IMG/VR virus record: IMGVR_UViG_2681813321_000028
Origin: a virus
Taxonomy: Duplodnaviria > Heunggongvirae > Uroviricota > Caudoviricetes
Reading direction: 5' to 3' (one strand)
Length of the DNA stretch: 15,746 nt
The notes beneath the pieces were generated by a model. That model worked only from the letters and a program-made list of their open reading frames with translations. It did no database searches and had not been told where the DNA came from. The position numbers and the translations under genes were made by a program. Shown here piece after piece: positions 857 to 15,746 of the stretch (its first letter is position 1; each line of letters opens with the position of its first letter).

Positions 857-886
857 GCCAAAACAGAGAGAGCATTACTGTCTCTG
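857..886 (-). terminator. Putative intrinsic terminator of the PerC-like gene
   Basis: Inverted repeat CAGAGA(864-869)/TCTCTG(881-886) overlapping the stop codon (875-877), followed on the minus strand by a short T-run (plus-strand AAAA 860-863). Confidence 0.3.
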
Positions 887-1162
887 GCAATCTTTATCGC
901 GATAACGCCTGAAGTACCCTCTCGCTTCCTCATCCATACCAAGAGCCGAATGAGTCCGCTTAACTGCCTGTCTTAAATCTCCGAATCTGTCTGTAGTTGC
1001 TGGTGGGCGTGCCGCCTTACGGATACATTCAGAGCGTCTGTTTGCTGCATGTTCACGTTCTTTATCGCCATCTGCCAGCATCATGACTTCTGCCCATCGT
1101 GCGGCAGCTCTCCGGTATAGCCCTTTTGACTCCAGTTCTTCAGCTTTCCTGTCCCTTATCAT
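875..1162 (-). CDS. PerC-family-like small transcriptional regulator (95 aa)
   Basis: ORF with RBS GAGG 5 nt before the ATG and a perfect TATAAT -10 (minus strand, plus coordinates 1176-1181). N-terminal motif EELESKGLYRRAAARWAEVM matches my recollection of the PerC/Pch family signature; not verified by search. Confidence 0.5.
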   Translation of the reverse strand: MIRDRKAEELESKGLYRRAAARWAEVMMLADGDKEREHAANRRSECIRKAARPPATTDRFGDLRQAVKRTHSALGMDEEARGYFRRYRDKDCQRQ

Positions 1163-2481: not shown

Positions 2482-2700
2482 TGATACCCCTCGCGCGCGT
2501 ACTGGTCACGAAATTGGTGTTTTGCTGTGGCAGTGATATCAGAAAAATCTTCCTGTTTCACATAAAGCGGATATGCGCGTACTGTAACGGCCCCATCAAC
2601 GGGGAGCGGATTTGAAATCCCGACCCAAGCTATGTACCAAATGCCATGTCTTGGATATATGATGATTGCCATTCTAAACAAAGCTAAAGGGAGGGTTGGT

Positions 2701-3051
2701 GTGAATGCTCAGGCTGTCATCATGGTTTTACTTGGTCTGATTGTCGCAAAACTATATCCAGACTGGTGGAAAGGGGCATTAGCAACTGTCGCCATCTATT
2801 TGCTTTTATCCGTCGTTAAGCGATCGTTCGTTAAGACCGTAAATCAAGCAAAACGTTTCTCATTTAAGAATTTAATAAACTATATTACTGGGCTTATTTT
2901 TTGCCTTTCAATTTTGATCGCTTCAGCTTTTTTGCCCGTATCAATAGCTAATTTTTTTGGCGCACCATATGAGGTAGGTTATCTATTCTCTGTTTTTTGT
3001 CTTGTTCTTTCCCTTCTTTACCTATGGATGAGAGCAAAGAACAAAAATTAG
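2701..3051 (+). CDS. Small polytopic membrane protein (about 116 aa from GTG 2701; ORF open from 2632)
   Basis: Strong RBS AAGGGAGGG (2687-2695) 5 nt before in-frame GTG 2701; alternative ATG 2722. Three to four hydrophobic segments. Markedly AT-rich relative to its neighbours. Confidence 0.5.
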   Translation: MNAQAVIMVLLGLIVAKLYPDWWKGALATVAIYLLLSVVKRSFVKTVNQAKRFSFKNLINYITGLIFCLSILIASAFLPVSIANFFGAPYEVGYLFSVFCLVLSLLYLWMRAKNKN

Positions 3052-3065
3052 CCATCCATGGCTAA
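3043..3065. terminator. Intrinsic terminator between convergent genes (clear for the minus-strand operon)
   Basis: Hairpin TTAGCCA-tcca-TGGCTAA (3048-3065) directly after the minus-gene stop (3070-3072), followed on the minus strand by UUUUU (plus AAAAA 3043-3047). Confidence 0.6.
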
Positions 3066-3069
3066 CCAG

Positions 3070-5175
3070 TTATTGAGATTCTTTTTGTGATGCCTGTGCG
3101 ACTCTGGTGAGCGATTGTGTGACCGTACTGATCGCTCTGTCATATGCTGTGCTACCTTTTGGCGTATTTGCCAGACGTAACAAGGCATTTCGTATAACAG
3201 GGCTTTCGTATGCCTTCGCTGCTCCGCCTACGGCACCAGCAGCAGGAACAACAAACGCAGCCGTTTTTAGCATCCCCGCTAATACTGCTGCGTTTATGAT
3301 GCCACCACCAACTAACAATCCATAAAGCTGCTGACCATTTAAGTTTTGAACGTTCGCTTTTGCCGCGTGTCTTGTATCGTTGAGGTATTTAATAACGCCG
3401 TCCAGTTCCTTTCCATGTACGCCTTTAAAGAAAGTTGCTGATTGCTTCCTGTTCCGGTGTAACGCATTAATAAACTTCTCAACACTGATATTTCCAGACG
3501 GATCAGTCGCCTTATCTACAGCATTCTGAACTATGGCTGCTCGTGCGTTTTGCCTACCATTGTCATCCAGAAGCCTGTAAAGCTGAGAACGTTCTGATGG
3601 GCTTTGGCTAAAAACGAGTTTTGTTACATCCTCAGGCGTGGCCTTGCCGCTGGCTATTGCCTTTTGAACGCGCGTTCTTCCCATCATGTCATTGAATTTA
3701 GACCATGAGCGATCAACCCTTGCCATATTAATGGCTTCGTCTGCTCCAAGATTTTTGGCTACGGCTTTTTTCATATCCGCCGTATATGCCTTGTAGATAA
3801 TATCGCTGGCTTTCTGGAGCGTATCTTTATCAACAGTGTCAGATGACGCCATAAATCGCTTTCGAAGATCGGTTCTGTTTTCCCTCGCCAGACGCAGGTC
3901 ATTTGGTCCGCTGGTGATATCGTCTTTAAATTGCTGCAAGACTTTTACCGCGGCTCTATCCTGAGATTTGCCCGGGCGGCTTAACACGGCAATCTGATTG
4001 TCGATAGCTTTTACCGTGTTTGAGAGATCGACAGGGGTATCCCCCATAGCGTCAATTATGCGGTTATATCGCTTTCCTGCTGCCTCAATGAATTTTTGTT
4101 GCCCTTTAGTCGCAGATTCATAAAGCTGTTTATCAGAAATGCCACCCAGACCATCGCTAAATGTTCTGACTAAATTTTCTCGTGCTTGTTGTTGATTCAG
4201 CCGATTCTTACCGGTTCCAAAAAAAGGAACTCTTTCGCCTAATGTCTGAGCCTGACTCTGCATAAAGGTTTTATCTTTCAGCATGTCACTGGTCATTAAC
4301 GGCAGATTTCTTTCCGATGCAAAGTCGACAGCAGCCTTTGCTTCAGGCGACATATCACCACGAACAGCCCTCGAAACCGCACTCGCTGTATTTTCCAGCC
4401 CCTTACCAATACCACCAATGCCAGCAGAAATTACCGTTTGTAACGGATCAATATCTTCTCCACCAGCAAGGCTGGTGGCTCCCTGTAGTGCTAAATCTGT
4501 AGCTGCTGATTTTCCTATGGCACTAAGCACCGTTCCAGCCCTGCCCGCTGGTGTAAACGCCAACGCATTAGCAAGAAACGAGGTCAGGTCTTGCGGTGAT
4601 AAACCCGGCTTGTTCAGGGCATAATCACCTGATGGCAGAGAAACGATAGTATTCCCCTTCTCATCCTGCCTTAATGTCGCCCCCATTCCCTGAAGAATCT
4701 TTTCCTGAGACGCGTCAGAGCCGAAAAGTTGAGACCATCCAGCCTTTAGGGCATCCATGCTTAGTGAGTTCAATTCTGGGGCAGAGGCGACATTTTGCAG
4801 TCTCTCCATCTCTGGAGTCATTCGGCTTTCGCCTGTTATAGCATCGCGCATCGCAGCCCCAAGACTGGCTCCCTGTTCTGCTGAACGCTCAAGCCCCTCT
4901 CTTTGCTGAGTAGCTAACTTTGCATACCCTGACGCAAGAGAATTATCAGATGATGTATGTTGAATATTTTGAGTTGCTGATTGGGATCGGTCTATTTCAT
5001 TCGTTGATGGTAGTGGATAGGCAGCATAAAAAGCCTGCTTAGCCTGCTCTACACTTTCTCCGGCTTGCGGGGCCACGACTTCATTGAAGTATTGCTCCTG
5101 AGCCTGCGCTTTTTGTTCTGGTGCTAACGCCTGATACTGTGGAGAGGCGATAACATCTTTCCATGCTTTAGCCAT
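3070..5175 (-). CDS. Hypothetical 701-aa protein, Ala/Gln/Ser-rich, with C-terminal Gly/Ala-rich hydrophobic hairpin (predicted membrane insertion)
   Basis: Long uninterrupted ORF; TAATG stop/start overlap with the upstream gene at 5173-5177; C-terminal segment LYGLLVGGGIINAAVLAGMLKTAAFVVPAAGAVGGAAKAY; no catalytic motif recognised by eye. Confidence 0.8.
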   Translation of the reverse strand: MAKAWKDVIASPQYQALAPEQKAQAQEQYFNEVVAPQAGESVEQAKQAFYAAYPLPSTNEIDRSQSATQNIQHTSSDNSLASGYAKLATQQREGLERSAEQGASLGAAMRDAITGESRMTPEMERLQNVASAPELNSLSMDALKAGWSQLFGSDASQEKILQGMGATLRQDEKGNTIVSLPSGDYALNKPGLSPQDLTSFLANALAFTPAGRAGTVLSAIGKSAATDLALQGATSLAGGEDIDPLQTVISAGIGGIGKGLENTASAVSRAVRGDMSPEAKAAVDFASERNLPLMTSDMLKDKTFMQSQAQTLGERVPFFGTGKNRLNQQQARENLVRTFSDGLGGISDKQLYESATKGQQKFIEAAGKRYNRIIDAMGDTPVDLSNTVKAIDNQIAVLSRPGKSQDRAAVKVLQQFKDDITSGPNDLRLARENRTDLRKRFMASSDTVDKDTLQKASDIIYKAYTADMKKAVAKNLGADEAINMARVDRSWSKFNDMMGRTRVQKAIASGKATPEDVTKLVFSQSPSERSQLYRLLDDNGRQNARAAIVQNAVDKATDPSGNISVEKFINALHRNRKQSATFFKGVHGKELDGVIKYLNDTRHAAKANVQNLNGQQLYGLLVGGGIINAAVLAGMLKTAAFVVPAAGAVGGAAKAYESPVIRNALLRLANTPKGSTAYDRAISTVTQSLTRVAQASQKESQ

Positions 5176-6653
5176 TAATCACCCCATAGTGAAGAAAAGT
5201 TACTGCTGGCTGCTGGCTGTGATACCTGCTCAGATTGCGGCAATGTCTGCGACGAAGAAGCAGTTCCTCTGTCAACTGCTGAAATAACCCGCAAAGCATC
5301 ATAAGTTCGACCAGAAGCAGCTTTCAGCGAATTGAACTGGTTTTCCATCTTCCGGCGCTTGGTATCAATGGTTTTTGTGGAATCACCAGGCTGAGGGAAA
5401 TACATTTGATAATATTTGGACATTTCAGCTGGTAGGATAGATGCCCCTGTTTCCTGACGGAGTATTGCCATTATTGCGTCATTAGCATTAACAACGTATT
5501 GCTGCTCTGCTGGGCTGAGCGTTAAGTTAGCCAGCGTCCCATTACCCAAAGCATTATTAATGATCGCCACTCGCTGTGGGCTAAGCTGGTCTTTCAGTGT
5601 ATCTATTGAATCAAGAGCATCCCTAACCCTGTATGCAAATCCAGCAGCTTTTTTAGCCCCTTCTGGCGACTTTTCCATGATCTTTTGGGCTGTTGGCAAA
5701 GCTATTGGACGAAACCCATCTCCAGATATTGGCTGGTTTAGTTTTCCCTGCTCTTCACTTCCGTCTGTGTAGTATTTTGTGACAGTGCCATCATCGTTTT
5801 CTCTAACACTCATTAATTTTTTGGCGTTTATATTAATTCCAGCCGCTGCCGCAAATGCCGCCGCCCCCTCTGGATCCGCCTTTAACATTTGAGCGTACTG
5901 ATTGTAATTCTGCATTGCTGCTGTTGGTGCATATGCTGACGTTAACGCATTTGCTCGGCTAATATCCTGCCCTCTCGCCTGAAGTGCTTCGCCAGCCTGA
6001 TTGCTGCGGATTGTCTCTGCCAACTTGCCACGCTCAATATCCCGACCTTCCATTTGATCTTTGATATCGAAATACTTCTCATGACCGAGAGAAAACAGCG
6101 CCAGATTACCTGCGAAATGCTGGAAGCCCTGCGGGTCATTAACCTGCATTTCAGCAATAGTTTCTGGAGGGATACCTAAACGACGCATCTCCTGCTCATT
6201 ATCCATCATGAACCTGCCAAATGCGCCCTGACCAAGCGATGAGGCTACCTGTGCTTTGAGCGCCAGATTGCCATAATCATCCCTTTGAGCATCATCGACA
6301 TAACTCATCCCTTTACGGACTTCCTCAAACTCTTCTGGGAATGCTGTAATAAGATTACGCATCTGCTCCCTGTCACCGGACGCATAAGCATCTGCATAAG
6401 CTTTCTGGAATGCCGCTTTACGCTCCTGCTGTTGCTGCTGCTTATAAATATCAGCAACGCCAGCCAGACCACGAAGACCTGTCAGAGCAACGTTATTTGC
6501 ACCTGAGCGAGCCAGTTCATTGTTTTCGCGGATCAGACCAAGCGTTGCGTTAATGTCGCTTGCCTTTGGCGCATTCTCATTTTGCGTACCGATGCCAGCC
6601 AGAAAACCACCAGAATTAATACCCTGTTGCCACGTAGCCATTGATTTACCCAC
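5175..6653 (-). CDS. Hypothetical 492-aa protein, low-complexity (poly-Q, Ala-rich), translationally coupled to the 701-aa gene
   Basis: ORF from GTG 6653 (or ATG 6641) to TAA 5175-5177; overlaps the upstream 57-aa ORF stop; contains QQQQQ and Gly-rich N-terminus GINSGGFLAGIG. Confidence 0.8.
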   Translation of the reverse strand: MGKSMATWQQGINSGGFLAGIGTQNENAPKASDINATLGLIRENNELARSGANNVALTGLRGLAGVADIYKQQQQQERKAAFQKAYADAYASGDREQMRNLITAFPEEFEEVRKGMSYVDDAQRDDYGNLALKAQVASSLGQGAFGRFMMDNEQEMRRLGIPPETIAEMQVNDPQGFQHFAGNLALFSLGHEKYFDIKDQMEGRDIERGKLAETIRSNQAGEALQARGQDISRANALTSAYAPTAAMQNYNQYAQMLKADPEGAAAFAAAAGININAKKLMSVRENDDGTVTKYYTDGSEEQGKLNQPISGDGFRPIALPTAQKIMEKSPEGAKKAAGFAYRVRDALDSIDTLKDQLSPQRVAIINNALGNGTLANLTLSPAEQQYVVNANDAIMAILRQETGASILPAEMSKYYQMYFPQPGDSTKTIDTKRRKMENQFNSLKAASGRTYDALRVISAVDRGTASSSQTLPQSEQVSQPAASSNFSSLWGD

Positions 6654-6819
6654 GTCCAGTTAAAGTGTAAGCCAGCGCCTTATCCATTAATCCCCGAGCA
6701 ATTTCGTGGATCGTTGGCGCAACTCCTACCTCTGATTTTTTACGCTGCTCCTCCTGAATTTTCTTTATCGCTTCCATTTGCTTCTCACTTATCAATACTG
6801 GCTTTACTGAAATAGCCAT
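6646..6819 (-). CDS. Small RHH-like protein (57 aa), first gene of the operon; absent from the supplied ORF track
   Basis: ATG at 6819-6817 preceded by RBS AAGGGGG (spacing 4-5); translation MAISVKPVLISEKQMEAIKKIQEEQRKKSEVGVAPTIHEIARGLMDKALAYTLTGRG has a strand-helix-loop-helix pattern; stop TAA 6646-6648 overlaps the start of the 492-aa gene. Confidence 0.5.
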   Translation of the reverse strand: MAISVKPVLISEKQMEAIKKIQEEQRKKSEVGVAPTIHEIARGLMDKALAYTLTGRG

Positions 6820-6852
6820 AACGCCCCCTTAGAACTGTATAAAACAACAGTC

Positions 6853-6881
6853 ATTATAGTTTCATAAAACGCAACATTCAT
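6853..6881 (-). promoter_or_regulatory. Putative sigma70 promoter of the 57/492/701 operon
   Basis: Perfect TATAAT on the minus strand (plus coordinates 6853-6858) about 35 nt upstream of the ATG; only a weak -35 (ATGAAT at 17-bp spacing). Confidence 0.3.
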
Positions 6882-6913
6882 CATTGTGATTGCAAAATAT
6901 GAAACAAATAGCA

Positions 6914-6947
6914 CAAAAAAATGCCACCGTTCAGTAGCTGGTGGCAT
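6914..6947 (-). terminator. Intrinsic terminator downstream of the 153-aa gene
   Basis: Perfect 8-bp stem ATGCCACC(6921-6928)/GGTGGCAT(6940-6947) with 11-nt loop, followed on the minus strand by a 7-nt U-run (plus AAAAAAA 6914-6920). Confidence 0.6.
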
Positions 6948-6999: not shown

Positions 7000-7461
7000 T
7001 TATGGAGTCGCATTACTCTTCATGGCGTGAGCTTTCCTGTTCTCTCTTTGTTCCTGGTTCCATGGATAAGTGTAATTGCCACCAGCAAAGACCATATTGA
7101 TTTTGTGAGGAACCATTAAAGCGATATCAGCACTCATGTCACTGAATGAAACACAGTGCAGACGTTCAAGCCATTTGTATGCTGCTGCCGCTTCTCCCCA
7201 CAAATTAATCCCTGCAAGTTCAACAATATCTCTGATGGAGCAGATATCAACCATCCCGTTAACGCCTGTAAAACGGCGTTTAAAGTCGCCAAGATACTTT
7301 CTGAAAAGAGTTGCTTTCATTGGTTCAGAAAGGTCTATGTATGGGAACACAACCACATCAAGCAGCATCTCCCTTCTGTTGTTCATCGGTATTACAGATG
7401 GCAAATCGGATACTTTGCCAAATACATGATGAAAAGCCTTTGCGATTATCTTCATCATCAA
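7000..7461 (-). CDS. Hypothetical protein (about 151-153 aa), monocistronic
   Basis: ORF with RBS GGGAGA upstream of tandem ATGs (7458 or 7455 the likely start; the track starts at TTG 7461); followed by its own terminator; no family recognised. Confidence 0.55.
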   Translation of the reverse strand: MMMKIIAKAFHHVFGKVSDLPSVIPMNNRREMLLDVVVFPYIDLSEPMKATLFRKYLGDFKRRFTGVNGMVDICSIRDIVELAGINLWGEAAAAYKWLERLHCVSFSDMSADIALMVPHKINMVFAGGNYTYPWNQEQRENRKAHAMKSNATP

Positions 7462-7554
7462 TCTCCCACTGAAACCAGTGATGTGGTGTTCAGATTTCGT
7501 AAAACACTCTCTAATGCCAGCCAGATGTTGTGCTCATCAATTCAGTCACGTTGT

Positions 7555-7690: not shown

Positions 7691-10447
7691 TCATTCTTCA
7701 GATGAGTTGTAATCTCCTGGCTGGTAATTGAGTACATAAACGTTTATTTGTCGTCCCTGAATACGTGGTGATTTTCTTTGGTATCCACGACCGCTGTTTG
7801 GTGGGGTTAGCATCCCGGCTTTTTTCAACACTTCAGCAAACTGTTTTGCGTTGAAACCACATGCGATCTCCTTTTCAAATGTGGCCGGGAATGTGTAGAA
7901 AATCATTGGGCTTTCGTCATGTTCTCCACGCTGACGGTATCCGGCTAAATCTTTGATGGGCAAATCTGCCGGGCTGTATGGAAATGGTGCAAAACGGCTA
8001 AGCCCATAGGCATTAAGAAATGCCTCCGTTTGTTCAATAATCTGCTGATGCTCTTTGTTACCTGTGCCGAACTCGCGCAACCATGCGTTATAGCTGTGCT
8101 GTATCGCATCACGGCATGTCTGAGCATCCCAGCCTGTTACAACCTCGCCTAACAACAATGCGGCCTCCAGAATGGCAAATCGCGCGGCTACACGGTGAAC
8201 CTGCTCACCATAATCGGATGGGATCAGGCTTCTCCATCTGCTTTCGCAGTCACGAACAGTTTTAATAGCCTGTTGCTGGTGGTCTGCCAGCCATTTAATC
8301 CACTCACGCCCGGACGCGCCGTGGTGATGCTGGTAAGCGTCTTTCAGTGCGTCTGCGTGCTGTTTTCCGTTCTGGTAATCGTGAAAGCGTACTGCTTTAC
8401 TCAACGGAATATTCAGCAGTCGCACCATTTGCCCGGCTTTGGTTTTTCGCCCGGAAGTAGCGATAAATGTTTCTAAATCCATTTCTCCGGTGCTGATTGC
8501 CACTGTACGCCAGCGTTTTAGATCCCGGTTTCCACCATCTTTAGCGCCTTGCAGTTTCCCTACACCGTTAAATAACGCATAGGCAGACTGTGAAACACTG
8601 ACAGGATCAGCGCCCTGACCAACTTCATCAAGCGGCATTAGTCCGTCATTGTGGGCGGCAGCTTCATTTGCCAGCCCCAGCGCGGTTCCGTACCACGTCA
8701 GCCGCAGTAAATCAGGGTTGCCGTATAAGCTGCTCGCCACGTTTGCCGTGGTGGTCTTACCTGCGCTCGACTGCTCATAGAAATGAATGCCGAACCCGTC
8801 AGCGCCCACCAGCCCAATCAATGGCGCTGCCAGTGCTGCGCCGATCCCGGTCATCATTGAATAGTTACCAAAGGCCAGACGCGCCACGTTATCACGCCAG
8901 CTTTTCGCGCTCCCTGAGACGGTATATCCGGCTGCGGCTGAGCTTCTCCCGCTGAACAGCACAGGATTTTCAGGTGTTCCGATGATTTCCCCATCAGGCA
9001 TGATGTACGCTCCGCATTGCCAGCCAGTGGCATGAGCAACACGCCACAATTCACGAGAGCCACTGCGTTGTAGCCAGTCTGCCAGTATTGCTCTGAGGCT
9101 GCTTTTGGTCGTGACATTTACCCCACCAGCTTTAAGTGTGCGCCATCCTTCACGTTCACCAATATCAGCCAGTGGAATGGCAGCGGTTGTCGGCGTTTCA
9201 GAACCAAACGACAGCCAGCGAAGAATGAGATACTGGTCTTTATCGTCTCTGCCAGTACCGATAACGCTTAACGGAGAACATAACCAGCTTTCGTTATTGA
9301 TGATTTCTCCACTCTGGCTGTCAGCTCTCGGAGATACCCAATAAATACCATCCTCGCGGCTTTCTATTCTTGGTTTCAGTGGGTCGGTATCCATAACCTT
9401 AAAATCGCTTCCCTCAATGGTCTGTGGCTCCTGTTTCACGCCATTACCCTGTGGTTGGTACATTGACTTATTGAACGCTTCTGTGGCGCATTTAATGCCG
9501 TGTTTTTGGTGGTAATCATTCCAGTCTGCTTTGTGATCTGTCGGGGGTAATGCCACCCATCCAGAAACAGATAAAGCTGCCTTTTCTGCTGCTATTCTCC
9601 CCGTGTTTTGTCTTCCTTCGCTGTGGTCGTTATCCGCAGCAATGATGATTTGTGCTGAAGGAAATTTATCCCGCAGTACCTGGGCGACATATAACAGGTT
9701 CCCGGCATCAATCGCCGCCACTGTCAGCGCCTCTGGACGAATTAAATGGGCAGATAATGCCGTTGCCAGCCCTTCTGCGATTAAGATGCTCTGTGTTGTT
9801 TCTGGTGCGTTTATGGCGTGATATGCCCCCCGCTTTGCTGAACCTGTCAGGAGTCTTTTTTCACCATGTGAGGTAATAGTCTGTGCTGCTGTTACTGCGC
9901 CGGATTTATCCACCAGCGCCAGCAACAGAGATCCATCGGGCAACACGGGGAATGTAAAATCACCTACCCCTTTCGCAACCAGATAATCAGATTTGCCGTT
10001 TACAGCCTTTCTGCGCATGTCATCAAACTGACGGGAAAACGTATCCCGTCTTTGTTGTTCGTCCTTCTCTGCCCTTTTCAGGCGCTCCTGTTCGCGTCGC
10101 TGGCGCTCGGTTTCCAGTTGTTCCCGTTTCTGGCTGGTGGCTTCTGGTGTTTCCGTTGTCCGGTAATCAATACCCAGAACATCAGCGGCAAGAAGCGCCG
10201 CCTCTGTTGTGTCGCAGTTATTTACGCGTTTAATTAAATCCAGCCCATCACCAGCGCCGCACTGATTACAGATGAAGCTACCGCGCCCGTTGTCATCGAA
10301 CCGGAATCGATCTTTGCCCCCACATGCAGGGCAGGGAGCATGACGGCGCGGAGAGTCAGGGACATTTATGTTCAGGCAGCCCAGCACATGAGGCCAGTTG
10401 TTTTCAGACGCACTGATAACCTGACGGATAAGATCAATGTTTCGCAT
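7691..10447 (-). CDS. Primase-helicase of the P4 alpha type (zinc ribbon + TOPRIM primase + P-loop NTPase), 918 aa
   Basis: N-terminal CPACGG...CNQCG zinc-ribbon motif; TOPRIM-like IAEGLATA ... IIAADNDH; P-loop-like SSAGKTT; RBS GGGGG upstream of ATG 10447; iterons directly downstream. Confidence 0.9.
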   Translation of the reverse strand: MRNIDLIRQVISASENNWPHVLGCLNINVPDSPRRHAPCPACGGKDRFRFDDNGRGSFICNQCGAGDGLDLIKRVNNCDTTEAALLAADVLGIDYRTTETPEATSQKREQLETERQRREQERLKRAEKDEQQRRDTFSRQFDDMRRKAVNGKSDYLVAKGVGDFTFPVLPDGSLLLALVDKSGAVTAAQTITSHGEKRLLTGSAKRGAYHAINAPETTQSILIAEGLATALSAHLIRPEALTVAAIDAGNLLYVAQVLRDKFPSAQIIIAADNDHSEGRQNTGRIAAEKAALSVSGWVALPPTDHKADWNDYHQKHGIKCATEAFNKSMYQPQGNGVKQEPQTIEGSDFKVMDTDPLKPRIESREDGIYWVSPRADSQSGEIINNESWLCSPLSVIGTGRDDKDQYLILRWLSFGSETPTTAAIPLADIGEREGWRTLKAGGVNVTTKSSLRAILADWLQRSGSRELWRVAHATGWQCGAYIMPDGEIIGTPENPVLFSGRSSAAAGYTVSGSAKSWRDNVARLAFGNYSMMTGIGAALAAPLIGLVGADGFGIHFYEQSSAGKTTTANVASSLYGNPDLLRLTWYGTALGLANEAAAHNDGLMPLDEVGQGADPVSVSQSAYALFNGVGKLQGAKDGGNRDLKRWRTVAISTGEMDLETFIATSGRKTKAGQMVRLLNIPLSKAVRFHDYQNGKQHADALKDAYQHHHGASGREWIKWLADHQQQAIKTVRDCESRWRSLIPSDYGEQVHRVAARFAILEAALLLGEVVTGWDAQTCRDAIQHSYNAWLREFGTGNKEHQQIIEQTEAFLNAYGLSRFAPFPYSPADLPIKDLAGYRQRGEHDESPMIFYTFPATFEKEIACGFNAKQFAEVLKKAGMLTPPNSGRGYQRKSPRIQGRQINVYVLNYQPGDYNSSEE

Positions 10448-10459
10448 TCTGGCCCCCGT

Positions 10460-11063
10460 TTAGTGCGTCACTGGTGCTTCTGGGATGCCGTTTTCGTTTA
10501 GTTCGGCAATAAAGCTGTTGTGAAGATCGGCAAGCACTTCTCGCCCAAACGAAGTGAGTGTTCCCTGTTCGACATCGAACATGTTGCTGTAAAAAATGAT
10601 GGCATTCTTTGTTCCGACATCAACACCATATTTCTCGATCATTGCGCCCTCAATGTTGTTTGCCATAGCGAGGCGCTCTGCTACTGGATACAGCGGCATG
10701 GCGACGATGCCATTGGAATAAACAGAAACCACGGAATGATTGCCACTGTCATCAATAATGCTGACGGTGCCGTTTCCCTTTCTCATTTCATTGATGAATG
10801 CTGTTGCTATCAGCCAGCGCCACATAATCACGTGATGCTGTGATGTGTAATCGAAATATCCCTGGTTGCCGCCACTGGCAATAGCGAGATGTATAAACAT
10901 GCCTTCATCTGGTTTATCGTCATAATCCCCGGCATCCAGACGATTTACGGCATCAATATATGAGACGGTCTCAACGCGTTCTGTCATGCCATCGTTGCTG
11001 CGGTGCATGATGTTTACGCCGTCAGGCGTTGCTTCTGCATGGAAGGTTAAGAAATTATTCATG
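10460..11063 (-). CDS. Hypothetical protein (201 aa) immediately upstream of the primase gene
   Basis: Start ATG 11063-11061 (MNNFLTF) with ATGAATAA-type overlap onto the upstream gene stop; the ORF-track N-terminal extension to 11167 would overlap the upstream gene by about 110 nt. Confidence 0.55.
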
Positions 11064-11276
11064 TTTCGCCTCGCCTGAATGATTCTGTAACTCATATTTG
11101 CCCAACAATTCGTCTGCTTCCTGAATAGCTTCTGGTACGCCATTGAGCAGTGACATAACCGCGCCAATCATTAACTTGTCTCTGTTGCTGGGGCTGGCCC
11201 CTTCAAGCCAGAACCCTAAAACAGTCTGAACCTGTTCGATGCGACATTGCGCTTCAATGAGCTGGATGTTGGTCAT
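11055..11276 (-). CDS. Hypothetical small protein (73 aa)
   Basis: ATGA start/stop overlap with the upstream gene at 11273-11276; part of the coupled operon. Confidence 0.5.
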   Translation of the reverse strand: MTNIQLIEAQCRIEQVQTVLGFWLEGASPSNRDKLMIGAVMSLLNGVPEAIQEADELLGKYELQNHSGEAKHE

Positions 11277-11536
11277 TTCGCACTCTCCACATCGATTAAA
11301 CTGATATCTATCAGGGAGGTAACTTTTTGTAGCCAGCTATTGATTACTGTCGCCTGTTCCCCTCCCACCGAGGGAATAATCTCATTCATCACATGAACCA
11401 GACCTGTGCGCGCTCTGGTAAGCCGTTCAGTCGCGCAATCTGCGGGAGTGAATGTGTCTGGATATGGCTCTTCGCGCCCCAGCAATGATTCAATTTCCAG
11501 CTCACACGGATGACGATAAATTAAGTTGATATTCAT
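11273..11536 (-). CDS. Hypothetical small protein (87 aa)
   Basis: RBS GGGGGTG; ATGA overlap with the upstream gene at 11533-11536. Confidence 0.5.
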   Translation of the reverse strand: MNINLIYRHPCELEIESLLGREEPYPDTFTPADCATERLTRARTGLVHVMNEIIPSVGGEQATVINSWLQKVTSLIDISLIDVESAK

Positions 11537-11727
11537 TTTTCACCCCCAAGAATTACCAGCTCGGCACGGGCATCGTTAACCAAAGATGAGCACGCTTTAA
11601 TCGCATCCACGACATCAGCAGCGTCCATTTCTTCAGCCGAAAGACTGACAGCAACCAGGACAGCCGCTGCTTGCTCGATTAATTGAAGTGCGGACGTAAG
11701 GCGAGGGGTATTAATTGAGTTATTCAT
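11533..11727 (-). CDS. Hypothetical small protein (64 aa from ATG 11727)
   Basis: ATGAATAA overlap with the upstream gene (11720-11727); GGGGG upstream; the ORF track's longer version starts at 11784. Confidence 0.45.
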   Translation of the reverse strand: MNNSINTPRLTSALQLIEQAAAVLVAVSLSAEEMDAADVVDAIKACSSLVNDARAELVILGGEK

Positions 11728-11938
11728 TGGTTGCCCCCGTTTTGCATGGCATTTGTCCACCTTCCAGCAGGAAATGAACGTCACGAACGGCGAGATCCAA
11801 TATCGCGAGTAACGCCTTCAGTTTTTCGTCTCGTGAGGGAGAGTTGCTCACCAGAATGTCATTAATCACTTCTGTCAGTGTGATGATCTGGCTTGTGCGT
11901 TCGAGGGGATCCATATGCACATCGTAGGTTTTAATCAT
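11720..11938 (-). CDS. Hypothetical small protein (72 aa)
   Basis: Strong RBS GGAGGTG 6 nt upstream of ATG 11938-11936; it is the 3' part of a 355-codon open frame that I treat as composite. Confidence 0.5.
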   Translation of the reverse strand: MIKTYDVHMDPLERTSQIITLTEVINDILVSNSPSRDEKLKALLAILDLAVRDVHFLLEGGQMPCKTGATNE

Positions 11939-12424
11939 GTGCCACCTCCATGCGGATACGACCAGCAAAAAAGCAGACGTGATCGCGCACCAGAGAACGG
12001 CGAGCATCGCGTTCAGACTCGGCAGCAATATGATGAATTTTGGCGGTAATTGTCGGGCAATCGCGGCGAACTGCGGCGATAATCCAGATAAATTGCGGTT
12101 TTTGGGTAGGGGTAGTAGCCAGCATGTGGCAGCCTCCATTCGATAGCATGTAACGCTACCACCGGAAACGCCAATTTCGCTGGTGGTAGCCCAGACAGGG
12201 TTGGCGTAACCGGCTCGAATGGATACCGGCGCTTCCGAAGAAGCCCCTGCCTGAGCCACCATTGATTGACAAAGGCGCTGGATTATACACCAACGCCCAA
12301 AAAATGGGTGAGTCAGACCTACGACATAAAAAAAGACGCTCGGCGCGTCATATGTCGCCATTCGATTTACCAGGACGCCAATCCCGGCACCCGTTTTATG
12401 AGGTGCCTTATAACCATAAACCGT

Positions 12425-12452
12425 GTTGCCGCATAACGGCAAGCTCTTTTTT
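12425..12452 (+). terminator. Terminator-like hairpin plus T-run on the plus strand inside the low-coding region
   Basis: Stem TTGCCG/CGGCAA with 5-nt loop (12425-12442) followed by TTTTTT (12447-12452); the strand is opposite to the surrounding operon, so function is uncertain. Confidence 0.25.
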
Positions 12453-12780
12453 ATGGACTCCGAAAACTCACTATTGGAAGAACCAGAAGCACAGTACATC
12501 GCGCTCATTTCGTTAACGTCACGCGCGTGGACGAAGGTTTTTGTGGAGTCACTACGCGAGCAGAGAAAGCCATCTACGACCAGAAATTCTCTGGCGCAGC
12601 CGCTGACCTTCTCAACGCTAACACCATCGACCGTAATTTCTGACATAGTTAAGGCATCCGCTCCTACCACCAGCAAATGATAAACTTTGCTTGTATCTGC
12701 TGTATTAATGCCTGACTTTGCTGTCATATTGCTGGATTTTGGCGACATACCAGCCAGTGAAAATGTCTTCTTCTGGGCGG

Positions 12781-12963
12781 TTAGCATTTGTTAACCTCCG
12801 CGAACTCCTTCATGAAACGTGCCAGCGGTTGTACGCATGGCGATTGATACCCGTCGCGATAAAACGTCACTCGGTTGTGAGACACGCTTTCGACAGTAAC
12901 GAGTGCTCCGTGGGCATCTTTGTAGCGTTTTTGAGGTTGTGGTGTTCCTGTCGGCTTAAACAT
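12781..12963 (-). CDS. Hypothetical small protein (60 aa from ATG 12963)
   Basis: Strong RBS GGAGGCGG 3 nt upstream of ATG 12963-12961; ATGTTTAA overlap with the antirepressor-like gene stop; stop overlaps a further downstream start at 12787 preceded by GGAGG. Confidence 0.4.
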   Translation of the reverse strand: MFKPTGTPQPQKRYKDAHGALVTVESVSHNRVTFYRDGYQSPCVQPLARFMKEFAEVNKC

Positions 12964-13789
12964 GGACCGCCTCCAGACGCTTAGCGAGCCAGCGTTGCGA
13001 CAGGCGGGTGAGTTCTCCTTTGCGCTGCTCATATTCCATGCCCATATCAATTAACGTGATATTGGTGCTTTCGAGATATGAGAGGTGCTCAAGCTGTTCT
13101 GCGTTCATATGGTCGCGAGGTTCGCCAGAATAGCCATTTATCCGCGCCCACTGCTTAGCAGTTAGCCCACCAAGAACGATACGAGAAATCATATTGCTCT
13201 CGTTTGTGTAGTGGTGTTGCTGCGTCGTTTTCCCCATCTCAGCACGGGCCATATTCAGCGCATCGCACATTGGCTTAAAGTTGTTTGCGGCACTGATACG
13301 GGCTTTTAGCTGGCGACGATAGCGGGCGGCGATTTCAGGCACGCTACGCTGTAATTCTTCCTCGCACTGGATGAAATAACGGCGGATAGCGCGCCCCTGA
13401 TCATTGCGTTCGATCATTGCCAGTTCTTTCGCCATTCCGACACTTAACAGATAGTCTTTGCCGGGTCTTCCAGACTGCTTAATCTTGCTGTAAGCCGCGC
13501 CATTCGGGATTTTCCCCAAATTTGGGGAAATAGTTTTATGGACTGAGTAATCGTGCCCAATGGTGAAGTCATATTCAGAGATGCGATCAGTGATCCATGT
13601 AGAGAAGTCTTTTCCCACGCCCAACGCTTTGTGTAACGCTTTTGCGCTAACAATATTGGTTTCACGCCCACCGATATGACCAGGAATAACCGGGACAATT
13701 GCGGCAAATTCATTACCGTTAATTGTGCCCAGAGAGGCGTTCAGATGAGGGGCAGCCTCAGAAATTAATCTGCTTTTTTCGATGTTCAT
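12956..13789 (-). CDS. Phage antirepressor-like regulatory protein (AntA/KilA-C-type), 277 aa
   Basis: RBS GGAG 7 nt upstream of ATG 13789; motifs ETNIVSAKALHKALGVGKDFSTWITDRISEYDF and YLLSVGMAKELAMIERNDQGRAIRRYFIQCEEEL resemble phage antirepressor families from memory. Confidence 0.55.
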   Translation of the reverse strand: MNIEKSRLISEAAPHLNASLGTINGNEFAAIVPVIPGHIGGRETNIVSAKALHKALGVGKDFSTWITDRISEYDFTIGHDYSVHKTISPNLGKIPNGAAYSKIKQSGRPGKDYLLSVGMAKELAMIERNDQGRAIRRYFIQCEEELQRSVPEIAARYRRQLKARISAANNFKPMCDALNMARAEMGKTTQQHHYTNESNMISRIVLGGLTAKQWARINGYSGEPRDHMNAEQLEHLSYLESTNITLIDMGMEYEQRKGELTRLSQRWLAKRLEAVHV

Positions 13790-13871
13790 TTTCAGTCTCC
13801 GTTAGGCGGCGTTAAACGGTAACCGGCTCATTTAAACCGTCTGGTCTGTTTCCTCCGGCTCTACAAAAATA

Positions 13872-14549
13872 ATGTCCATCATTTTTAATGGACACTATCG
13901 TATGAAACACCGGACCTGGATCACTGAAGCTTTACGTCTTCACTTTGAAGAACATTTACCCCGGGTTGTGGCCGGGCGTCGCCTGGGTGTACCAAAATCA
14001 ACAGTTTGTAGTATGTTCGTGCGCTTTCGGAGAGCTGGCCTTTCGTGGCCTTTGCCCGCAGGCATGTCGGAGCAGGAACTTGATGCCTGCCTTTACGGAC
14101 AATTTTCCACGGTACCAGTCGTACGTCCTGAAAGCACCGTTATATCCGAAGCCCCCGTGGTAAAAAAACGTCCCCGGCGGCCCAACTTCCCTTATGAGTT
14201 TAAAATCGCCTTAGTGGAGCAGTCACTGCAGCCCGGAGCCTGTGTGGCGCAGATCGCCCGGGAAAACGGAATCAACGATAACCTGCTCTTCAACTGGCGC
14301 CATCAATACCGGAAAGGTGGCCTGCTGCCTTCCGGAAAAAATATGCCGGCACTGCTTCCCGTGACGTTAACGCCGGAGCCGGATAATAAAATCCCGGCCC
14401 CCGCACAGGAACCAGAGCAGATAAATACACCGTCCGACAGTCTGTGTTGTGAGCTGGTTCTGCCGGCCGGAACTCTCAGGCTTAAAGGTAAACTGACGCC
14501 GGCGTTATTACAGACACTTATCCGCGAAATAAAAGGGAGCAGCCACTGA
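13872..14549 (+). CDS. tnpA: IS66-family accessory protein TnpA (orfA) with an approximately 95-aa N-terminal HTH-like extension
   Basis: C-terminal two-thirds (KKRPRRPNFPYEFKIALVEQSLQPGACVAQIARENGINDNLLFNWRHQYRKGG) matches IS66 orfA as I recall it; the N-terminal part (WITEALRLHFEEHLPRVVAGRRLGVPKSTV...) looks like an HTH from a transposase N-terminus; true start uncertain (ATG 13872 or 13902). Confidence 0.65.
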   Translation: MSIIFNGHYRMKHRTWITEALRLHFEEHLPRVVAGRRLGVPKSTVCSMFVRFRRAGLSWPLPAGMSEQELDACLYGQFSTVPVVRPESTVISEAPVVKKRPRRPNFPYEFKIALVEQSLQPGACVAQIARENGINDNLLFNWRHQYRKGGLLPSGKNMPALLPVTLTPEPDNKIPAPAQEPEQINTPSDSLCCELVLPAGTLRLKGKLTPALLQTLIREIKGSSH

Positions 14550-14896
14550 TGATATCTCTCCCTGCAGGTTCGCGTATCTGGCTGGTTGCAGGTATCACCG
14601 ATATGCGAAATGGCTTTAACGGCCTGGCATCAAAAGTTCAGAACGTCCTGAAGGATGACCCGTTCTCCGGACACCTGTTCATCTTCCGCGGACGCCGGGG
14701 TGACCAGATAAAAGTGTTGTGGGCTGACAGTGACGGACTGTGCCTCTTCACCAAACGCCTGGAGCGGGGCCGCTTCGTCTGGCCAGTCACCCGTGACGGC
14801 AAGGTGCACCTTACTCCGGCTCAGTTATCCATGCTTCTTGAAGGTATCAACTGGAAGCACCCGAAACGAACGGAACGCGCTGGAATCCGCATATAA
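14549..14896 (+). CDS. tnpB: IS66-family TnpB (orf2), 115 aa
   Basis: MISLPAGSRIWLVAGITDMRNGFNGLA...HLFIFRGRRGDQIKVLWAD is the hallmark IS66 TnpB sequence. Confidence 0.9.
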   Translation: MISLPAGSRIWLVAGITDMRNGFNGLASKVQNVLKDDPFSGHLFIFRGRRGDQIKVLWADSDGLCLFTKRLERGRFVWPVTRDGKVHLTPAQLSMLLEGINWKHPKRTERAGIRI

Positions 14897-14915
14897 CCCG
14901 TTGTAAAGTGAGGAT

Positions 14916-15746
14916 ATGGACACCTCACTTGCTCATGAGAACGCCCGCCTGCGGGCACTGTTGCAGACGCAACAGGACACCATCCGCCAGATGGCTGAAT
15001 ACAACCGCCTGCTCTCACAGCGGGTGGCGGCTTATGCTTCCGAAATCAACCGGCTGAAGGCGCTGGTTGCGAAACTGCAACGTATGCAGTTCGGTAAAAG
15101 CTCAGAAAAACTTCGTGCAAAAACCGAACGGCAGATACAGGAAGCACAGGAGCGAATCAGCGCACTTCAGGAAGAAATGGCGGAAACGCTGGGTGAGCAA
15201 TATGACCCGGTACTGCCATCCGCCCTGCGCCAGTCTTCAGCCCGTAAACCGTTACCGGCCTCACTTCCCCGTGAAACCCGGGTTATCCGGCCGGAAGAGG
15301 AATGCTGTCCTGCCTGTGGTGGTGAACTCAGTTCTCTGGGATGTGATGTGTCAGAGCAACTGGAGCTTATCAGCAGCGCCTTTAAGGTTATCGAAACACA
15401 ACGTCCGAAACAGGCCTGTTGCCGGTGCGACCATATCGTGCAGGCACCAGTACCTTCAAAACCCATTGCACGCAGTTATGCCGGAGCGGGGCTTCTGGCC
15501 CATGTTGTCACCGGGAAATATGCAGACCATCTGCCGTTATACCGCCAGTCAGAAATATACCGTCGTCAGGGAGTGGAGCTGAGCCGTGCCACACTGGGGC
15601 GCTGGACAGGTGCTGTTGCTGAACTGCTGGAGCCGCTGTATGACGTCCTGCGCCAGTATGTGCTGATGCCCGGTAAAGTCCATGCTGATGATATCCCCGT
15701 CCCGGTCCAGGAGCCGGGCAGCGGTAAAACCCGGACAGCCCGGCTG
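14916..15746 (+). CDS. tnpC: IS66-family transposase TnpC, N-terminal 277 codons (3' truncated by window end); not in the supplied ORF track
   Basis: ATG 14916 preceded by GTGAGGA; frame open to 15746; leucine-zipper-like N-terminus and CCPACGG...C...CCRCDH zinc-finger motif typical of IS66 transposases. Confidence 0.9.
   Translation, partial: MDTSLAHENARLRALLQTQQDTIRQMAEYNRLLSQRVAAYASEINRLKALVAKLQRMQFGKSSEKLRAKTERQIQEAQERISALQEEMAETLGEQYDPVLPSALRQSSARKPLPASLPRETRVIRPEEECCPACGGELSSLGCDVSEQLELISSAFKVIETQRPKQACCRCDHIVQAPVPSKPIARSYAGAGLLAHVVTGKYADHLPLYRQSEIYRRQGVELSRATLGRWTGAVAELLEPLYDVLRQYVLMPGKVHADDIPVPVQEPGSGKTRTARL

Follow-up and report, generated by a model that had tools for sequence, protein, structure and literature searches.

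An ejection-protein module in an EcCIMP1-like phage satellite, with a possible role in re-equipping helper particles

What are two large, closely linked genes doing in an element that carries neither capsid nor tail genes? This question is raised by the 15,746-nt stretch IMGVR_UViG_2681813321_000028 (IMG/VR; Caudoviricetes), which was analysed over its whole length and is referred to here as the window. On its minus strand, at 3043-6881, a short open reading frame (ORF) of 57 amino acids (aa) is followed by two large ORFs. A first, sequence-only reading had taken the large proteins to be of unrecognised type and the cassette to be an undescribed system, either a membrane-acting defence or exclusion system under ribbon-helix-helix (RHH) autoregulation or ejection/tape-measure-like proteins co-opted by a satellite. 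Although the cassette proved to be real, insulated and conserved, its type is a recognised one. In identity and context it is almost certainly the ejection-protein (E-protein) module of an island resembling EcCIMP1, a satellite of P22-like podophages. The best explanation as a whole, to which we assign a probability of roughly 0.5, is that the satellite's E-proteins re-equip helper particles. Its most specific component, that the satellite proteins would enter virions and bypass exclusion, is argued by analogy with other phages and falls just short of even odds.

The cassette and its two large proteins

The cassette and its control region consist of the following features.

6923-6938, minus strand: intrinsic terminator upstream of the cassette promoter (terminator scan; conserved in E. 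coli islands)
6859-6905, minus strand: candidate operator with a perfect 8-bp inverted repeat (repeat search; column conservation)
6853-6858, minus strand: -10 hexamer TATAAT (sequence; conserved across genera)
6835-6850, minus strand: candidate LexA (SOS) box CTGT-N8-ACAG, 2 nt downstream of the -10 (pattern search of the window)
6646-6819, minus strand: 57-aa small protein, head of the module and putative regulator (45 homologues; ratio of nonsynonymous to synonymous substitution, dN/dS, 0.04-0.21)
5175-6641, minus strand: 488-aa P22 gp20-family ejection protein (PF16928, PHROG 917)
3070-5175, minus strand: 701-aa P22 gp16-family ejection protein (PHROG 770; homology to N7 ORF13 and P22 gp16)
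3226-3330, minus strand: coding region of the hydrophobic Gly/Ala hairpin of the gp16-like protein (hydropathy, alignment)
3036-3067, minus strand: intrinsic terminator ending the cassette (terminator scan; 9-bp stem, then TTTGTTCTTT)

Every sequence feature that the sequence-only reading listed was found where it had been placed. Its description of the unit as insulated was fair, since a second terminator (6938-6923) lies upstream of the promoter, where it closes the primase/accessory transcription unit, and the cassette itself ends in a hairpin (3067-3046) followed by a T-run, leaving the unit closed at both ends.

The 488-aa protein matches PF16928 (Inj_translocase, 'DNA/protein translocase of phage P22 injectosome') over residues 12-228 with 281.7 bits (5.5e-84), against a gathering threshold of 29.7 bits, and PHROG 917 over residues 1-488 (1e-142). 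It also matches P22 gp20 by blastp, and its identity to any sequenced phage reaches at most ~55-58%. This protein is a member of the P22 gp20 family, for which packaging into the virion and release from it are predicted. The gene had previously been read as 492 codons overlapping the stop of the small ORF; the large ORF is indeed present, but its start is most likely the ATG at 6641, which gives 488 aa and an N-terminus (MATWQQGINSGG) that is essentially that of P22 gp20. This start, also used by RefSeq, lies 4 nt past the stop of the small ORF, so the two do not overlap.

The 701-aa protein matches PHROG 770 ('DNA transfer protein') over residues 19-699 (1e-162), while a Pfam scan gave no significant match. 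Its closest relative in any sequenced phage, at 67% identity, is ORF13 of Lederbergvirus N7, whose gene follows those of gp14, gp7 and gp20 in the place of gp16; similarity to P22 gp16 itself amounts to 31% identity over 435 aa (blastp, E 3e-49), and the C-terminal motif YES..IRN.LLRLANT..G..AY.RA is conserved with P22 gp16, its part YES..IRN.LLRLANT being shared with N7 gp16 as well. The protein is a member of the P22 gp16 family, with membrane association and a role in DNA transfer predicted. The TAATG stop/start overlap at 5173-5177, correctly identified in the earlier reading, couples translation of the gp16-like gene to that of the gp20-like gene, and P22 genes 20 and 16 share the same 1-nt overlap.

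Both large proteins are thus full-length homologues of P22-family ejection proteins, in the same order and with the same junction as in P22, which refutes the claim that they are of unrecognised type. Their homologues sit in conserved phage morphogenesis clusters (gp14-gp7-gp20-gp16 in P22, N7 and Kapi1), an outcome that the sequence-only reading had itself named as refuting its proposal, and RefSeq already annotates them under the names 'phage DNA ejection protein', 'injection protein' and 'P22-gp16 family phage DNA ejection protein'. Neither NCBIfam (cassette proteins) nor a PDB sequence search (gp20-like and gp16-like proteins) returned a match. Unlike in P22, the genes are encoded by a satellite from which portal, coat, tail and terminase genes, as well as gp14 and gp7, are absent, and they stand under a promoter of their own, with predicted regulation, rather than in a phage late operon. 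The second alternative of the sequence-only reading, that of co-opted ejection or tape-measure-like proteins, was therefore right on identity, and even its tape-measure part has a counterpart, as a genuine tape measure protein occupies the same slot in sister islands (see below).

The hydrophobic Gly/Ala hairpin that had been noticed near the C-terminus of the 701-aa protein is real, spanning residues 616-650 with a mean Kyte-Doolittle value above 1.4 (19 residues). SieA-escape mutants of P22 are altered at gp16 positions G532 and P546 (PMC10461980). When the sequences are aligned on YES..IRN.LLRLANT, P546 falls on T638 of the window protein, inside the hairpin, and G532 aligns with G614, just before it, in all six gp16 proteins aligned. 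The hairpin region thus corresponds to the SieA-escape region. Between the window and the island allele of NZ_CP128790, eight differences cluster at residues 603-626 (3298-3369, minus strand); they include G614S, at the site equivalent to P22 G532, and the rest of the hairpin is identical between the two alleles.

An EcCIMP1-like island

The backbone marker linking the window to a described satellite lies upstream of the cassette.

7691-10447, minus strand: satellite primase (Zn-ribbon, Toprim, DUF927; Pfam)

This primase is 99.5% identical to that of EcCIMP1, the published phage-inducible chromosomal island (PICI) of E. coli MP1 (Pick, Stadel and Raivio, ISME J 2025, PMC11773190; GenBank OR778291), and shares 99.8% identity with its counterpart in the thrW island of strain ABU 83972. 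The window and EcCIMP1 have in common the primase, AntA, DUF4222, ash, small hypothetical genes, PerC and the attachment (att) core TCCTATTATC. The window represents an island of E. coli, bounded on the left by the att core at 522-531, GATAATAGGA, beside the yagP/paoD region; int and alpA lie beyond the window and are present in the near-identical island of NZ_CP062910. Capsid, tail, lysis and large-terminase genes were found neither among the window ORFs (Pfam and PHROG scans) nor in the RefSeq annotation of the full island, and the sequence-only reading was right about both the missing capsid and tail genes and the satellite context. The window is an EcCIMP1-like PICI satellite, although helper-dependent mobilisation, as shown for EcCIMP1 with Kapi1, may be disabled in this copy by an IS66 insertion (see below). 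The island family is published, and the claim of an undescribed system does not hold.

EcCIMP1 excises in the presence of the P22-like podophage Kapi1, and more so when Kapi1 is induced, in a process that requires its own alpA and int (PMC11773190). Kapi1 transduces it at low frequency, Kapi1 titres after induction are not lowered by it, and it adds to the superinfection immunity of Kapi1 lysogens, an effect for which the responsible gene was not assigned (PMC11773190). [quoted passage not shown] The authors neither tested these genes nor discussed ejection. A literature search for satellites with ejection, injection, internal virion or tape measure proteins returned only that study.

As in the window, the E-protein module of EcCIMP1 lies downstream of the primase and is headed by the same promoter and the same small gene (87% identical). 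The EcCIMP1 module is a long one, however, with gp14/DUF2824, gp7, gp20 and a 906-aa gp16 bearing an SLT domain, whereas the window lacks gp14 and gp7, has different gp20 and gp16 alleles, and carries in addition a 153-aa ORF and an insertion of an IS66-family element.

The promoter and the small gene

The TATAAT at 6858-6853 is perfect, as the earlier reading stated, and nearly invariant across 13 related loci from about ten genera, but the -35 is poor. It matches at just 3/6 positions, which is why a sigma-70 scanner did not call the promoter and why the promoter is probably regulator-dependent. The ribosome-binding site proposed ahead of the 57-aa ORF is present (AAGGGGG, 6830-6824).

The candidate operator spans the -35 region. 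Its arms, GTTTCATA (6905-6898) and TATGAAAC (6866-6859), stand 31 nt apart, the right arm abutting the -10. Across the same 13 loci the upstream sequence follows the pattern TTTCAT-N4-TGCAAT ... ATTGCA-N4/5-TGAAAC and then runs directly into TATAAT, with the columns TTTCAT...TGCAAT...ATTGCA...TGAAA invariant or nearly so. The candidate LexA box is the single match to CTGT-N8-ACAG in the 15.7-kb window, where 0.2 would be expected; the same box occurs in EcCIMP1 and the Serratia island, and other genera have the non-canonical CTG-N9-CAG. This conserved operator, together with the predicted LexA box in the E. coli and Serratia islands, is reported here for the first time. We infer from these elements that the promoter would be held off by an operator-binding factor, either the 57-aa protein or AlpA, with LexA acting as well in E. 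coli and Serratia.

Homologues of the 57-aa protein number 45, come without exception from Enterobacterales and lack any relevant Pfam domain, though an unrelated precomputed one is listed for a single partial record. A tblastn search of the phage collection gave no match, so the gene is one of the satellite and not phage-derived. The sequence-only reading had seen an RHH-like pattern in this protein. A resemblance in secondary structure does exist, since the AlphaFold2 (AF2) monomer model shows an extended N-terminus followed by helices at 12-28 and 37-53 (predicted local distance difference test, pLDDT, 73.5), but no match to an RHH family was obtained: the protein has no Pfam match at E<=1, hhalign against an Arc/Mnt alignment returned a probability of 1.3%, and a Foldseek search of the model against the PDB gave nothing with E<1, the best match of RHH type, the TraM N-domain (4qpo_A), having a probability of 0.2. 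An RHH fold is possible but unproven, the AF2 model being compatible with it and not diagnostic, and RHH autoregulation of the cassette is likewise unproven, though a conserved operator exists.

A candidate packaging site

A second segment of phage homology lies outside the cassette, on the opposite strand.

12533-12639, plus strand: homologue of a segment of P22 gene 3 (small terminase, TerS), candidate packaging site (107 bp, 87.9% identical to P22 nt 4-110)

Inside gene 3, the homologous stretch has the annotated 22-bp P22 pac site as its exact starting point, and the segment matches 117 phage records, in every case within the small-terminase gene. Each of the E. coli islands examined has the segment, which comes in two alleles. 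We report this 107-bp copy of the pac region in an island as a new observation and regard it as a candidate packaging site, predicted from its homology. The TerS of Kapi1 was considered as the counterpart of the segment and rejected, as it does not align, Kapi1 having a different TerS type; this difference may explain the low frequency with which Kapi1 transduces its satellite. The two alleles of the segment diverge from each other far more than the flanking DNA does, and the segment lies antisense within the N-terminal part of an annotated 355-aa 'ash family' ORF.

Proposed function

Exchange experiments with P22 provide the framework for interpreting the cassette. P22 procapsids accept and use the E-proteins of Sf6, L, HK620 and CUS-3, even though the accepted gp16 and gp20 proteins are mostly just 21-50% identical to those of P22; gp16 and gp20 must be exchanged together, while gp7 is interchangeable (PMC10461980). 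SieA acts on gp16 and gp20, escape maps to both, and the E-proteins of HK620 bypass P22 SieA (PMC10461980). Since this pair is exchanged together, gp7 is interchangeable and SieA acts on both members, it makes sense that the minimal cassette consists of exactly gp20 and gp16.

On this basis we propose the following sequence of events. In the resting island the promoter would be kept off by a factor bound to the 8-bp inverted repeat, and additionally by LexA in the E. coli and Serratia islands. DNA damage (through the SOS response) or the helper would start the satellite cycle, upon which the promoter would fire and gp20 and gp16 would be made and loaded into helper procapsids. Satellite concatemers would then be packaged by the headful from the pac-like site. 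In the next cell, the satellite's matched gp20/gp16 pair could join the interchangeable gp7 of the helper in building the DNA conduit across the envelope. What the satellite would probably gain is access to helper lysogens, or to other cells, in which the helper's ejection proteins are blocked (SieA-type exclusion), or else altered entry requirements. Several observations favour this proposal: the SieA-escape positions fall in the hairpin region of the gp16-like protein; in strain MP1 the satellite and helper alleles are 83% identical for gp14 and 57% for gp7, but just 26% for gp20 and 24% for gp16; E-protein alleles have been exchanged on a near-identical backbone; and the purifying selection, the promoter elements, the pac-region copy and the sister-island cargo point the same way.

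The same exchange experiments suggest a rival use of the pair, in which satellite gp20 and gp16 co-assemble with helper E-proteins so that mismatched pairs poison virions and lower helper infectivity. Interference with the helper is a common satellite strategy, for example through capsid or terminase proteins. P22 hybrids with foreign gp16 alone or foreign gp20 alone are non-infectious, although the foreign gp16 was assembled (PMC10461980), and the satellite and helper alleles of MP1 are, as noted, only 24-26% identical for this pair. However, the satellite carries a complete matched pair, which should itself function; poisoning would also hit particles containing satellite DNA; and EcCIMP1 does not reduce Kapi1 titres after induction (PMC11773190). 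We therefore consider helper interference unlikely.

Several points weigh against the re-equipping of helper particles by satellite E-proteins. The entry of the satellite proteins into virions and their role in transfer are proposals, and the benefit of SieA bypass is reasoned from another system. Because E-proteins load before DNA is packaged, helper virions would receive those of the satellite too, and there is no obvious way of reserving them for satellite particles. Only in the E. coli and Serratia islands does the LexA box have its canonical form, the island equivalent of the 22-bp P22 pac matches at just 16/22 positions, and the gp16 gene of the ABU 83972 island is a pseudogene. Transduction of EcCIMP1 by Kapi1 has been seen at low frequency only, and the contribution of EcCIMP1 to superinfection immunity leaves room for a function in the resident cell (PMC11773190).

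If the satellite does deploy its own DNA-ejection proteins, this would add a further strategy to capsid remodelling, terminase redirection and the making of own capsids. It would also create a testable link between satellite spread and superinfection exclusion, given that the targets of SieA are the two proteins of the short cassette. The pac-region copy and the SOS/operator promoter offer direct experimental handles.

Module variants, prevalence and selection

The module occurs in two forms in E. coli. The long form (EcCIMP1, ABU 83972) consists of the small gene, a DUF2824 gene (gp14 homologue), a gp7 homologue, gp20 and gp16; in these two islands the gp14 homologue is 83-84% identical to that of Kapi1 and the gp7 homologue 56-59% identical to P22 gp7. 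The short form, as in the window, has the small gene, gp20 and gp16 without gp14 and gp7, and the Serratia islands likewise carry small gene, gp20 and gp16. The co-occurrence that the earlier reading had proposed to check was thus found, with all three genes together in E. coli and Serratia. Among 5,426 complete E. coli genomes, the short-form junction was present in 217 and the long-form junction in 258, together ~475 genomes or ~9%.

Homology between the two forms spans the upstream terminator, promoter, ribosome-binding site and small gene, and breaks in the last codons of the latter. The E-protein alleles have been swapped on a near-identical island backbone: between the window and MP1, gp20 is 26% identical, in its N-terminus only, and gp16 is not alignable by blastp, set against the near-identity of the primases. 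Synonymous divergence between two islands was 0.25 for gp16 versus 0.019 for the primase. The gp20-like protein of the window is itself a mosaic: residues 1-80 are nearly identical to P22/N7 gp20, and starting near residue 200 the protein shares ~99% identity with the island allele of ABU 83972. It follows that recombination with the 5' end of a P22-like gp20 gave rise to the short form, and the chimera is the mark of the event that removed gp14 and gp7.

The cassette might instead be an inert remnant of a decayed P22-like prophage beside the satellite. The lack of other morphogenesis genes would fit, as would the gp16 pseudogene of ABU 83972 and the interruption of the window island by IS66. 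Yet all three cassette genes are under purifying selection (in addition to the small gene, dN/dS is 0.12-0.32 for gp20 and 0.15-0.23 for gp16), and the cassette ORFs are intact in 5/5 islands examined for this ratio. The promoter and small gene are conserved and absent from phages, the position behind the primase is maintained in 18/18 related loci from about ten genera (described next), and the cassette is present in the E. coli genomes counted above. We reject the remnant explanation on selection, synteny and prevalence, and regard it as very improbable.

A wider family with swappable cargo

Scanning one genome per species with the small-protein alignment identified 15 loci, to which direct look-up added three, giving 18. 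Each of the 18 has, upstream of the small gene, a primase homologue (62-100% identical), and most also carry alpA, a 143-aa gene, antA, ash and int. The cargo downstream of the small gene lies at the following positions in the sister islands.

L010, L019, L022, L024, L025, L027, L018, L020, L023, about 10150-14000: sister-island cargo
L015, L016, L014, L026, about 10200-18000: sister-island cargo
L021, 10153-13111: sister-island cargo
L009, L017, 10206-12650: sister-island cargo

What follows the small gene differs among genera. P22-type E-proteins are found in Escherichia and Serratia. Most Erwinia, Pantoea, Chimaeribacter, Lonsdalea and S. silvae loci encode a 108-aa protein and a tape measure protein of 850-1190 aa, which is shorter or split in two of these loci; the Erwinia protein, the only one scanned, matches PHROG 1107 (E 0) and Pfam TMP_3 (1e-56). 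Raoultella has a 605-aa tape-measure/transglycosylase-like protein. Three large proteins occupy the slot in Klebsiella, Leclercia and Pectobacterium, and the Klebsiella trio matches ORF14-16 of the Pseudomonas podophage Ab31 in order and size, with a direct match of the third protein to ORF16; the place of these ORFs in Ab31 is between its internal virion proteins and its tail fibre. Rahnella carries a baseplate hub and a central spike with the GpV Apex motif, followed by a TerS gene. In every class the cargo is the part of the virion that crosses the envelope of the recipient. One small gene and promoter heading swappable cargo across about ten genera is, apparently, a previously undescribed arrangement.

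These data allow a broader proposal, which we put forward tentatively: that this is a PICI-like family with a DNA-delivery cassette matched to the morphotype of the helper, replacing only the envelope-crossing parts of the virion in order to enter excluding or otherwise impenetrable cells. The cassette would hold P22-type gp20/gp16 (gp14 and gp7 being optional), a tape measure protein of siphovirus type, the internal-virion trio of a podovirus with T7 architecture, or the baseplate hub and central spike of a myovirus. If true, this mode of hijacking would differ from capsid-size redirection, terminase swapping and capsid formation. Capsid-forming PICIs (cf-PICIs) encode capsid, portal and connector proteins and steal tails. 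The present family resembles them in encoding part of the virion and taking the rest from the helper but differs in that it appears to encode only envelope-crossing proteins, with both capsid and tail coming from the helper. Operon I of the staphylococcal pathogenicity islands (SaPIs) offers another parallel: it is a LexA-controlled morphogenesis and packaging operon that follows the replication module, has an SOS box at its promoter, and carries capsid-size redirection genes and TerS. The window operon is similarly a helper-exploitation operon placed after a replication module, although its LexA box is predicted only and it carries ejection proteins instead. In standard satellite-finding tools, phage structural genes count as 'forbidden' in PICIs (PMC10085698), and for that reason the present family may be overlooked systematically or wrongly labelled as defective prophage.

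The sister cargo also bears on the headline of the sequence-only reading, a defence or exclusion system acting in the resident cell, where E-protein homologues would insert in the envelope or titrate incoming components and thereby block P22-like DNA entry. The addition of EcCIMP1 to the superinfection immunity of Kapi1 lysogens, with no gene assigned (PMC11773190), would be consistent with such a role, as would the hydrophobic hairpin of the gp16-like protein and the fact that the primase-adjacent region of PICIs is a known defence hotspot (PMC11364771). However, no defence model in PADLOC-DB 2.0 matches the 488-aa or the 701-aa protein, the 57-aa protein has only a chance-level match to Cas11a (E 0.017), and eight neighbouring proteins gave nothing relevant, so that in the window the cassette has no recognised defence gene next to it. 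With its operator and LexA box, the promoter has the look of one that is repressed in the resting state. By eye, neither large protein has an N-terminal signal peptide, and both would thus be made on the cytoplasmic side. Tape measure, hub and spike, or an internal-virion trio in the sister slots, sometimes with TerS, point instead to a morphogenesis/packaging operon. P22 SieA and other exclusion proteins do act at the step to which the cassette relates, DNA entry through gp16 and gp20, but the cassette proteins do not resemble SieA and are presumably targets of exclusion rather than excluders. The defence headline is not upheld, and a resident-cell exclusion function seems quite unlikely.

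Neighbouring genes and other features of the island

The primase-adjacent slot, a PICI defence hotspot (PMC11364771), is occupied in the window by the 153-aa ORF (7000-7461, minus strand), which lies between primase and cassette and has no family match. EcCIMP1 and ABU 83972 lack the 433-bp insertion (7064-7496) in which it lies.

Variable accessory genes of this kind directly upstream of the cassette (AAA ATPases in Raoultella are another example) suggest that the cassette could serve as a counter-defence spare part, supplying variants of helper proteins that are insensitive to immunity, carried by the same satellite or its host, that targets assembly or entry. Tail or needle proteins are indeed the targets of Tai-type PICI systems, and those who described these systems predict that satellites must have some means of circumventing them (PMC11364771). 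We nevertheless consider this explanation improbable, as the cassette is found both with and without an upstream accessory gene and in the window has no recognised defence gene beside it.

On the other side of the cassette, a 139-aa ORF (2632-3051, plus strand) with about four hydrophobic segments by eye faces the gp16-like gene in convergent orientation, at the place taken by sieA in P22. It had no match in phages (tblastn, 50,697 phage records), Pfam, PHROGs or PADLOC, and its identification as SieA was rejected for lack of similarity (BLASTP against P22 SieA, E 0.99). The slot downstream of gp16 varies among islands, and EcCIMP1 has a 232-aa lipoprotein-like gene there.

At the other end of the window, an IS66-family element (13819-15746; a HTH_Tnp_1 ORF, TnpB_IS66 and the start of a transposase) is inserted just beyond antA and splits the alpA/int end from the rest of the island. 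Because of this separation, the satellite copy in the window may not be inducible. Near the left end, 875-1162 (minus strand) encodes a PerC-family regulator, the EcCIMP1 version of which is a repressor of LEE (locus of enterocyte effacement) in Citrobacter. Within the 'ash family' ORF, Rfam matches to the C4 antisense RNA (79.5 bits; 12179-12266, minus strand) and the Hfq-binding RNA isrK (67.1 bits; 12329-12406, minus strand) overlap the Pfam Phage_ASH region. These matches suggest a P1/P4-style RNA immunity region, and the annotation of a long 'ash family' protein may be partly spurious.

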